Origin: Escherichia phage Flotzy
Sequence record: PP925827.1
Direction: 5' to 3' (one strand)
DNA length: 42,657 nt
Shown here in pieces: positions 35,110 to 36,884 of the stretch. Position numbers and translations under genes: made by a program. Within the stretch, counting starts at the first letter, position 1. The number at the start of each line of letters is the position of its first letter. Under the pieces are notes generated by a model, which was not told where the DNA came from, did no database searches, and saw nothing but the letters and a program-made list of their open reading frames with translations.

Positions 35110-35735
35110 GGTTTAACCCTCTGTTAGGCGGCTGCCACCGCCAGTGGAACTTCTCCATACACAACAGAGAAGGGCACCCGCGCGATTGTTATGGGTAGAC
35201 AGGCCACTTCCCTCGCGCCCGGGTGGATTGGGTTATGAGCCCGTCGCCCGGTGATGCCCTTGTCTCTTGTGTAAAAAAGGTGCCCACCGATGTGATGGGC
35301 AAAGACTACACACAGCAATGATTTTGTTGTGGCGGTGGTGCCTCCACCTGCCGGACCGGCCAGAACCGGCGACGCTACACCTCAAGAAACGTATTCATTT
35401 CAAATGTTGAAATAAAAACTTGTTGGCCTCGTCACGTGCGCAGAGCCGCATTACCACAACTGGAAGCGCACTCTTTCGGTAACAAACCTGCCCCCGCAGT
35501 GAAAGAGAGAAGGAGTGCGCTTTCACGTTGTGCCCTTAAAAAGCTGGCTGTCACCCTCAAGGGGAAAGTGAGCAGCCAGAACAGGGATCACTTCTTATTG
35601 CTTTGGCCTGCTTTTAACCACATCAGGCGCGGTGGTAAGCCATTTGCGAATCATCCGGTCATTCATACGCCACCGGCGGCTACTTCGTGGGCTTCCTGCC
35701 TGTTCGCTGTTGATGAAAGTGAAGATAAAAGATAT

Positions 35736-35773
35736 TTGCGAAATGCGCAAGAAATAAAATGCGTAAAACGCAA
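35736..35773. promoter_or_regulatory. O_L-like operator pair
   Basis: TTGCGAAATGCGCAA (35736-35750) and ATGCGTAAAACGCAA (35759-35773): 5-bp arms TTGCG/CGCAA around 5-bp spacers. Confidence 0.55.
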
Positions 35774-35784
35774 TTGAAAGGGCG

Positions 35785-35815
35785 TAAAAAAACCGCCGTG
35801 TAGGCGGTTATTTGT
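35785..35815 (-). terminator. terminator after cI (potentially bidirectional)
   Basis: AACCGCC-gtgtag-GGCGGTT hairpin flanked by A-run and T-rich run. Confidence 0.7.
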
Positions 35816-35827
35816 TCTTAGGGGATG

Positions 35828-36523
35828 TTATCCGTGCCGTTTAACTGACTGCGACTGGCTGATCATTACCTTGCCGAAAACGTAAAATCTGTCTTCATTG
35901 GACTTGTCCACTGACCACTCCCGATATTTAGGGTTATCGGAAATGACAAGAATTTTATCTGGGATCATCTGTAATCTTTTGACGTAAATTTTATCATCAA
36001 AACCAAAGACATAAATCCCATCACCATCAAACTCATTGATCGAAATATCAACGAATATCAAATCACCTGGTTCAATGGTATCAGCCATGCTGTCACCACG
36101 AACGTTAATCACTTTGACCGTATCTGGTGTTCTCCCACCAAATAATGCGGCGGCTCTTTCGTTGTTGTACTCAATGGACCTGATGACATCGACGACATCA
36201 CTACCTTGTATATGGCCCATGCCAGCACTGGCGCTGACATCGAGCAACTCGACTCTAAACACAGGGTCACCCTCTCCATAAGCTGGATTTTTACCACTGG
36301 ATTTACATACAGTAGTTTCATTTGGAGACGGTGTAAAGAGTTCTGCCACGCTAACACCAAGTGCCGTAGCATATTTGCTAAGCGATTGTTCAGTAAATGA
36401 CTTTTGTTTTCCAGTCTCAACCCGTGAGACGTTCGCACCGTCAATACCTACAGCTTCAGCAAGATCTGAAATTTTCATGCCCTTTTCGAGGCGTAATTCT
36501 CTAATGCGGTTTCCTATGTTCAT
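35828..36523 (-). CDS. cI: CI-like repressor (HTH plus S24 LexA-like autopeptidase)
   Basis: N-terminal XRE-type HTH; Ala-Gly cleavage site; Ser in GDSM and Lys in KRL. Confidence 0.9.
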   Translation of the reverse strand: MNIGNRIRELRLEKGMKISDLAEAVGIDGANVSRVETGKQKSFTEQSLSKYATALGVSVAELFTPSPNETTVCKSSGKNPAYGEGDPVFRVELLDVSASAGMGHIQGSDVVDVIRSIEYNNERAAALFGGRTPDTVKVINVRGDSMADTIEPGDLIFVDISINEFDGDGIYVFGFDDKIYVKRLQMIPDKILVISDNPKYREWSVDKSNEDRFYVFGKVMISQSQSVKRHG

Positions 36524-36543
36524 GCGTCCATTACAGGTTGTTT

Positions 36544-36606
36544 TTGCGTGATATGCAAAGCAACTTGCGCAAGTCGTAACTACACATTAATATGCGTAAT
36601 ACGCAA
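36544..36606. promoter_or_regulatory. O_R-like tripartite operator between cI and cro
   Basis: Three 15-bp sites: TTGCGTGATATGCAA, TTGCGCAAGTCGTAA (containing palindrome CTTGCGCAAG), ATGCGTAATACGCAA. Confidence 0.6.
36565..36593 (+). promoter_or_regulatory. candidate pR promoter for cro
   Basis: -35 TTGCGC, 17-bp spacer, -10 TAATAT; overlaps operators; ~28 bp upstream of cro ATG. Confidence 0.5.
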
Positions 36607-36620
36607 TTACAGGGGGCATT

Positions 36621-36884
36621 ATGCAATCACCGTTAAGAAATTTGCGAAAATCGCAAGGTTTAACTCTCTCTCATGTGGCAAACGTGGTGGACATTGATCC
36701 AGCCAACCTAAGCCGAATTGAAAGGGGTCAACAAATCGCATCACTCGATGTAGCTGAAAGGCTTGTGAAGTTTTATTCGGGCCAAATTGATGAGCTCCAA
36801 ATCTTGTACCCGCACCGTTATACGCAGGCTACAGAAACTGGGTCAGCATCGGTACCACAGGAAAAAGGGGAAAGCCGTGGGTAA
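36621..36884 (+). CDS. cro: Cro-like HTH repressor
   Basis: 87 aa, HTH (LTLSHVANVVDIDPANLSRIERG), divergent from cI. Confidence 0.8.
   Translation: MQSPLRNLRKSQGLTLSHVANVVDIDPANLSRIERGQQIASLDVAERLVKFYSGQIDELQILYPHRYTQATETGSASVPQEKGESRG

Follow-up and report, generated by a model that had tools for sequence, protein, structure and literature searches.

In the immunity region of Escherichia phage Flotzy (sequence record PP925827.1, whose whole stretch of 42,657 nucleotides (nt) was analysed and is referred to here as the window), the CI repressor and Cro probably operate a lambdoid immunity switch by reading short dyads with the core TGCG-N5-CGCA, and this switch would include an auxiliary operator buried within the cro coding sequence. 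Six dyads were located: two in the presumptive left operator (OL), three in the right operator (OR) between the divergent cI and cro genes, and one within cro. They cluster in the immunity region and keep their position in related loci, and the pattern of silent substitutions indicates DNA-level selection on the intragenic site.

Six dyads around the predicted early promoters

The sites, and the promoters predicted among them (pR, rightward; pL, leftward; pRM, maintenance promoter of cI), are the following:

35736..35750, no strand: OL1, TTGCGAAATGCGCAA, perfect core; overlaps the -35 and the spacer of the predicted pL
35759..35773, no strand: OL2, ATGCGTAAAACGCAA, perfect core; centre 23 bp from the OL1 centre
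36544..36558, no strand: OR3, TTGCGTGATATGCAA, one core mismatch (TGCA)
36565..36579, no strand: OR2, TTGCGCAAGTCGTAA, one core mismatch; left arm is the pR -35
36592..36606, no strand: OR1, ATGCGTAATACGCAA, perfect core; overlaps the pR -10 and the predicted start
36642..36656, no strand: predicted intragenic operator (O+28), TTGCGAAAATCGCAA, perfect core; cro codons 8-12
36565..36593, plus strand: pR, -35 TTGCGC (36565-70), 17 nt, -10 TAATAT (36588-93); predicted start near 36600
35722..35750, minus strand (leftward): putative pL, -35 TTGCGC (35750-35745), 17-nt spacer, -10 TATCTT (35727-35722)
36530..36558, minus strand: putative pRM, -35 TTGCAT (36558-36553) inside OR3, 17-nt spacer, -10 TGTAAT (36535-36530)

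How unusual is such a cluster? The degenerate pattern WTGCGNNNNNYGYAA matched seven distinct sites in the window, when 1.76 ± 1.45 matches were expected and none of 100 shuffles reached the observed count, and six of the seven fell in 35736-36656. The strict core TGCGNNNNNCGCA occurs four times in the 42,657 base pairs (bp), at 35737, 35760, 36593 and 36643; all four perfect cores thus lie within one 920-bp stretch, the immunity region, and the search for further copies found none elsewhere in the window. They belong to OL1, OL2, OR1 and the intragenic site, the cores of OR2 and OR3 being imperfect. When one mismatch was allowed, the window-wide core count was that of chance (33 versus 32.4 expected), so that the signal consists in the clustering of perfect and near-perfect sites. 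The seventh match to the degenerate pattern (41673-87, near the window end) is consistent with the chance count, and a one-mismatch site inside cI (36425-37), being present only in near-identical relatives, was also treated as chance.

These results bear out most of what a first-pass annotation of the same letters had proposed, namely three 15-bp dyads between cI and cro, overlapping a pR whose hexamers TTGCGC-17-TAATAT can be read straight from the sequence, two further dyads beyond cI as a likely OL and a perfect copy in the first cro codons. All six sites are present where it had placed them, with the small correction that the second OR site begins at 36565, and the two dyads beyond cI have perfect cores, are conserved and lie over the putative pL. 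Its consensus, (T/A)TGCG-N5-CG(C/T)AA, has to be widened for OR3, whose right arm, TGCAA, is not covered by CG(C/T)AA.

For a comparative view, Cro homologues were aligned and 160 loci were fetched from genome and viral contig collections; the comparison set comprised about 90 distinct related loci, with Cro identities of 55-99% and hosts that include Enterobacter, Buttiauxella, Citrobacter, Klebsiella, Kluyvera, Pantoea and Mixta. Across this set the sites occupy fixed positions relative to the cro ATG: -878 (OL1), -855 (OL2), -70 (OR3), -49 (OR2), -22 (OR1) and +28 (intragenic). The per-base conservation profile displays footprints on the arms and on the promoter hexamers, pR being kept as TTGCGC-17-TAAnAT and the pRM -10 region as a conserved ATTACA block, and the 5-bp spacers vary. 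Phylogenetic footprinting of this kind supports the assignment of the dyads as putative operators. Indirect support comes from the relative phiNP, in which OR is nearly identical: there the cI-cro control region, placed before lux, gives expression that increases on induction with ultraviolet light (bioRxiv 10.1101/2025.01.01.630987). OR1 and OR3 are kept as full dyads, and the mismatched TGCA of OR3 is itself conserved, giving TTGCAT on the opposite strand. OR2 appears weak as a full dyad because its left arm alone, which is the pR -35 and lies within the invariant palindrome TTGCGCAA, is conserved and its right arm is not; in distant relatives a register centred 7 bp to the left fits better. 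The leftward promoter over OL1 is kept as TTGCGY-17-TA(T/A)nnT in 72 distinct loci (TATCTT as -10), and homology between subgroups fails a few bases past its -10, a break that is typical of a mosaic boundary. At the level of sequence and conservation, then, several dyads lie between cI and cro over divergent promoters and a second set would lie over a leftward early promoter beyond cI, which is the arrangement of a lambdoid switch.

In the model that we favour, OL1 and OL2 would cover pL, OR1 would cover the -10 and the start of pR, the left arm of OR2 would coincide with the pR -35, and OR3 would cover the -35 of the cI maintenance promoter. The order of core strength fits a CI repressor that occupies the lytic-promoter side first. 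Six bases separate the pRM -10 from the cI ATG, the A of which is the seventh base past that hexamer; because TTGCAT-17-TGTAAT ends so close to the start codon, we infer that the maintenance transcript of cI could be leaderless, as it is in lambda.

The two proteins that would read these sites are encoded as follows:

35828..36523, minus strand: cI repressor, 231 amino acids; N-terminal helix-turn-helix (HTH) and C-terminal Peptidase_S24
36621..36884, plus strand, divergent from cI: cro, 87 amino acids, HTH_3 type (Pfam HTH_3 at 7e-10)

The first-pass assignment of this divergent pair holds on domain content, with HTH plus Peptidase_S24 on one side, HTH_3 on the other and a CII/YmfL-like gene next. 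The cI product matches Pfam Peptidase_S24 (3e-21), HTH_3/HTH_26 and PHROG 4, transcriptional repressor (3e-58), and an Ala-Gly pair (SASAGMG), the serine motif GDSM and VKRL can be read in its translation; it thus looks like a LexA-like repressor with an HTH and an S24 self-cleavage domain. Residues 5-38 of Cro and 7-40 of CI are 47% identical over 34 residues (E = 9e-9), so that Cro resembles a paralogue of the CI DNA-binding domain, of HTH_3 type, as in 434 and P22. Because both proteins have the recognition region AN(V/L)SR(V/I)E(T/R)G(K/Q)Q, which is conserved through the cI family, CI and Cro should read the same half-site, as in phage 434. PDB sequence searches returned no close solved relative of either Cro or cI, and an operator complex is not transferable.

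The motif had also been offered as an operator consensus for the immunity specificity of this phage, and here the operator part stands on the phylogenetic footprinting and the specificity part does not. TGCG-N5-CGCA cores occur as well in distant cI/Cro modules of Achromobacter, Ralstonia and Pseudomonas; since the core is common to such modules and the recognition helices are conserved, the comparison marks it as a family consensus and not as a specificity private to Flotzy. In loci of Gallionella, Achromobacter, Ralstonia, Paraburkholderia and Pseudomonas with Cro homologues only 41-55% identical (our loci L014 and L019-L036), (A/T)TGCG-N5-CGCA(T/A) dyads and a TTGCGCA -35 block are kept upstream of cro, beside a cI that is only 25-35% identical to that of Flotzy or has no detectable match; this suggests that the half-site is much older than the Flotzy immunity type. 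Two copies of the cI/cro module were also seen on different contigs in Candidatus Pantoea alvi PSNIH6 (L007, L009) and in the pairs L129 and L133, and L110 and L112. Such paired copies in one genome or bin raise the question of whether modules with a common core are truly heteroimmune.

Silent positions in the intragenic site

The intragenic 15-mer encodes Leu8-Arg9-Lys10-Ser11-Gln12 of Cro, and this peptide (LRKSQ/H) is conserved among homologues. Is the dyad then a coding coincidence, that is, a common start of the first HTH helix whose spelling is a dyad by chance? XRE proteins indeed often have the helix-1 motif LRxxxG and cI itself has IRELRLEKG, yet the equivalent cI codons carry no site, and the five amino acids permit 6 x 6 x 2 x 6 x 2 spellings although the silent positions that form the arms stay fixed. 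Among 75 distinct sequences, Leu8 is TTG in 71 of 71 cases, Ser11 is TCG in 65 of 65 and Gln12 is CAA in 54 of 55, whereas the other Leu, Ser and Gln columns of the Cro alignment use two to six codons. Codon 11 stays NCG even when the residue is Ala (GCG in 6 of 6) or Thr. Arg9 is CGN in 73 of the 75, and its N takes all four bases. Only codons 2, 8 and 11, of 38 conserved degenerate codon columns, have zero synonymous entropy.

The same picture emerges from parsimony counts on a neighbour-joining tree of 69 distinct sequences that was built without the 15 bp. Along the site, the numbers of changes are 1,0,0,0,0 in the left arm, 12,0,3,10,4 in the spacer and 0,0,0,0,5 in the right arm. The third positions of codons 8 and 11, which are exactly those that fall in the dyad arms, are the only two of 65 third positions with no change, against a mean of 9.4, and the probability that the two least variable third positions would be these two is about 1 in 2,000. 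The silent positions next to them, in the spacer, changed 12 and 10 times, so that the loci are not too closely related for change to be seen. A coding coincidence is, on these figures, extremely improbable. The contrast between zero changes at the silent positions of the arms and 10-12 in the spacer instead indicates that the intragenic site is maintained by selection acting on the nucleic acid.

Selection on nucleic acid could act on RNA as well as on DNA, and we considered the dyad as a hairpin of the cro mRNA, located 21 nt past the AUG, that would affect translation or stability and would bind no protein as DNA. Taken alone, the 23-nt segment does fold (-6.0 kcal/mol, z-score -2.8), and a fold of the 5′-most 101 nt also contains the hairpin. 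Nevertheless, this 101-nt 5′ region of the predicted transcript folds no better than shuffles (z = +0.28), and the stem is only 5 bp long once the particular spacer of Flotzy is discounted. A true RNA stem would tolerate G-U and swapped pairs, yet none of the eight core positions changes in the 69 sequences and compensatory pairs are lacking, and structured RNA with compensatory base pairs was not observed in the 5′ coding region of cro. The variant GTGCG...CGCAC of mEp460, set against TTGCG...CGCAA, was rejected as compensatory pairing, as it touches only the outermost, non-core positions. Finally, the same arms, likewise 5 bp apart, form the operator core at five untranslated sites. Rfam gave no match in the whole window at the gathering threshold and, in a permissive scan of 35050-36700, nothing at the operators. 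Taken together, identical arms, no covariation, shuffle-like folding and no Rfam family make the hairpin very unlikely and lead us to read the intragenic site as a putative sixth operator.

Which protein would this operator serve? Its distribution follows the cI subtype: of 72 distinct loci with the 231-amino-acid cI type, 70 have a perfect core, and the site is absent from 26 of 27 loci with another cI type or none, many of which (including Achromobacter, Ralstonia and some Pseudomonas loci) still carry TGCG-N5-CGCA in OR. This bears on the proposal that the site serves Cro and not CI, for negative feedback on its own operon late in lytic growth. The location of the site in Cro's own gene speaks for that proposal, as do the near identity of the recognition helices of Cro and CI and the behaviour of lambda Cro, which turns down pR late in infection. 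However, two loci whose Cro is 57-59% identical and whose cI is different (L015 and L018) lack the site, and a common helix predicts binding by both proteins. We consider service to Cro alone unlikely.

Almost no synonymous change was found in cro codons 2-3 either (36624-36629; Gln2 always CAA, Ser3 TCA in about 91%). These codons belong to no operator-like dyad, and a translation-initiation constraint may lie behind them.

Possible roles of the putative operator within cro

On the reading of the intragenic site as an auxiliary operator for CI, probably also for Cro, this sixth, consensus-strength site in codons 8-12 would add a strong anchor just within the pR transcript. Three modes of action are plausible: i) it could raise OR occupancy through cooperative contact or looping with OR1, OR3 or OL, ii) it could block polymerases that escape from pR, as an elongation roadblock, and iii) it could mediate feedback of Cro on its own operon. 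Since the site is written into codons that an essential gene conserves, mutations would not easily remove it, and this would hinder the appearance of operator-constitutive (virulent) mutants. The centre of the site lies at about +49 from the predicted pR start, about 900 bp from OL and, in Flotzy, 50 bp from OR1 and 98 bp from OR3; in the family the last two distances are 50-52 bp and 98-100 bp. OR3 and the intragenic site are placed symmetrically about that start. A more specific version, in which CI dimers on OR3 (about -49) and on the intragenic site (about +49) pair into a gal-like loop of about 98 bp around pR, OR1 and OR2, with one foot in invariant cro codons that makes virulence mutation difficult, seems to us quite unlikely as stated. 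To our knowledge, a coding-locked anti-virulence repressosome of this kind has not been described for lambdoid phages.

Several observations weigh against an auxiliary operator and the switch built around it. At +42 to +56, a bound repressor lies too far downstream to keep polymerase off the promoter, so that a less direct mechanism is needed, and the 50-52 bp to OR1 are not a whole number of helical turns. The 15-bp dyad can also fold as an RNA hairpin at -6 kcal/mol. A generic sigma-70 promoter scan called no promoter in 35000-37000, neither pR nor pL; pR is missed because TTGCGC and TTGACA agree at no more than 3 of 6 positions, and our promoter calls rest on conservation, not on that scan. 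The starts of pR, pL and pRM are likewise predictions, and the operator assignment, that of the intragenic site included, relies on sequence and conservation. Lastly, according to the consulted passages of a preprint on Citrobacter phage phiNP, a lux reporter placed downstream of the cI-cro control region shows basal expression in the lysogen and is still induced by ultraviolet light (bioRxiv 10.1101/2025.01.01.630987). If that reporter held only the cI-cro region, without OL and the intragenic site, then the sixth site would not be essential, and in that case it would be an enhancer of control and not a requirement.

Those passages also report an AlphaFold3 prediction in which a foreign Stx-phage Cro binds a 20-bp stretch of phiNP that ends 12 bp before cro (bioRxiv 10.1101/2025.01.01.630987). 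This putative phiNP operator, as given there, overlaps OR1; a native CI/Cro operator set, an OL or an intragenic site were not found described in the passages searched. The searchable literature yielded no experimental operator definition for this cI/Cro module, and searches on mEp460, ST64B and operators within cro returned nothing on a TGCG-N5-CGCA operator family.

Are there precedents for operators located downstream of the promoter? The classical auxiliary operators within genes are lac O2 and gal OI, the latter at +53.5 in galE. The site at about +49 in Flotzy resembles them in that a second operator would lie within the first structural gene, and pR is flanked by OR3 and the intragenic site as the gal promoters are by OE and OI. 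The proteins are unrelated, a loop in Flotzy is hypothetical, and the gal loop needs HU. Among phages, a CI operator with a part in immunity has been reported for HK022, 300 bp downstream of OR (Carlson and Little 1993, as cited in PMC8053113). As far as that citing paper describes it, HK022 is like Flotzy in having a repressor operator within the pR transcription unit in addition to OR1-3, and differs in its distance, about 300 bp past OR compared with about +49 for the predicted intragenic site. An operator-consensus site downstream of the pR start and beyond OR1-3 would thus place Flotzy with HK022 in this respect. We know of no embedding in conserved codons for the HK022 downstream operator.

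The switch would be one of the lambda/434 kind, in which a codon-embedded operator maintained by selection within cro appears to be a modest novelty, and the general picture of temperate phage control is unchanged. What the analysis provides is a putative map of the operators of a cI/Cro module found widely among prophages of Enterobacter, Citrobacter, Klebsiella, Pantoea and E. coli; phiNP, in which prophage cross-regulation is currently being studied, has this module too. The intragenic site is, in addition, a clean example from nature of a transcription-factor site laid over codons and kept purely via silent positions. Whether the downstream operator acts as a loop, a roadblock or an anti-virulence device is directly accessible through synonymous mutations.

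Known switches, relatives and the leftward transcript

With lambda, Flotzy has in common divergent cI and cro genes with three operator positions between them over two back-to-back promoters, a second operator set over pL beyond cI, a LexA-like self-cleaving repressor, a cII-like gene after cro and, possibly, the leaderless cI mRNA. The operators are shorter (13-15 bp with a TGCG-N5-CGCA core, versus 17 bp), there are two OL sites instead of three, OL and OR are separated by about 850 bp instead of 2.3 kb, Cro is of the all-helical HTH_3 type whereas lambda Cro is alpha+beta, and lambda has no counterpart of the putative extra operator inside cro. The resemblance to phage 434 (and P22) lies in the paralogous HTH_3 proteins CI and Cro and in one short dyad, of which the outer arms are conserved and the AT-rich centre varies. 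Flotzy cI matches the 434 repressor weakly in sequence (E = 6e-4); the sequence identity is very low and the half-sites differ, TGCG in Flotzy and ACAA in 434.

The whole 42.7-kb window is that of a lambdoid siphovirus with phi80/mEp043-like morphogenesis genes, and its first 25 kb are about 97% identical to Escherichia phage Eeyore. In the immunity region the identity is 96% to Eeyore and 83% to phiNP, which over the whole query is 83% identical with 79% covered and in which the OR region is nearly identical; the cI-cro part shows about 72% identity with both Klebsiella phage P7641 and mEp460. The gene after cro encodes a CII-like activator (PHROGs) of the YmfL family (NCBIfam), and a replication-initiation-like protein is encoded beyond it, at 37767-38621. 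This order, a small divergent cro followed by a cII-like regulator and replication genes, is what would be expected of a lambdoid phage.

Between the end of cI and OL lies one further element of the switch:

35791..35809, both strands: terminator-like hairpin, bidirectional

On the leftward side, about 600 nt without a convincing open reading frame (about 35110-35715, minus strand) separate the putative pL from the first sizeable leftward gene (34738-35109). Two terminator-like hairpins were seen in this leader, at about 35574-35535 (by eye) and at 35301-35281, and early leftward transcription would seem to need antitermination; an N-like gene or a nut/put element was not identified. About 50 nt into the predicted pL transcript, a basic reading frame of 23 codons, MNDRMIRKWLTTAPDVVKSRPKQ (35595-35666, minus strand), is preceded by GGTGG. 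It has no PHROG match and could be a small early peptide or nothing.

The start of the leftward transcript, AACAGGCAGGA(A/C)GCCCACGAAGTAGCCGCC (minus strand, window 35675-35712), is common to Flotzy, phiNP (locus L002, 2320-2360) and the cryptic prophage e14 of E. coli K-12 (locus L165, 1640-1680). As a candidate for the same module, e14 (ymfK/ymfT/ymfL) was rejected, because it has GTAC-type operators despite the same gene order; all that it has in common with Flotzy is the ymfL-like gene and these first bases of the leftward transcript. That the start is kept in e14 despite a different immunity type points to a mosaic junction immediately past the pL -10.

In the untranslated leader of this leftward early transcript, Rfam also gives a match to the host small RNA RprA that spans the full length but falls below threshold (35272-35408, minus strand; 43.2 bits versus a gathering score of 70, E = 2e-4). 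The literature searched contained nothing on phage-borne RprA-like RNAs. Within the match, 26 nt, ATTGCTGTGTGTAGTCTTTGCCCATC, agree exactly with E. coli K-12 rprA and are followed by the terminator hairpin at 35301-35281, and phages Eeyore and LLS also carry the RprA-like element at full length.

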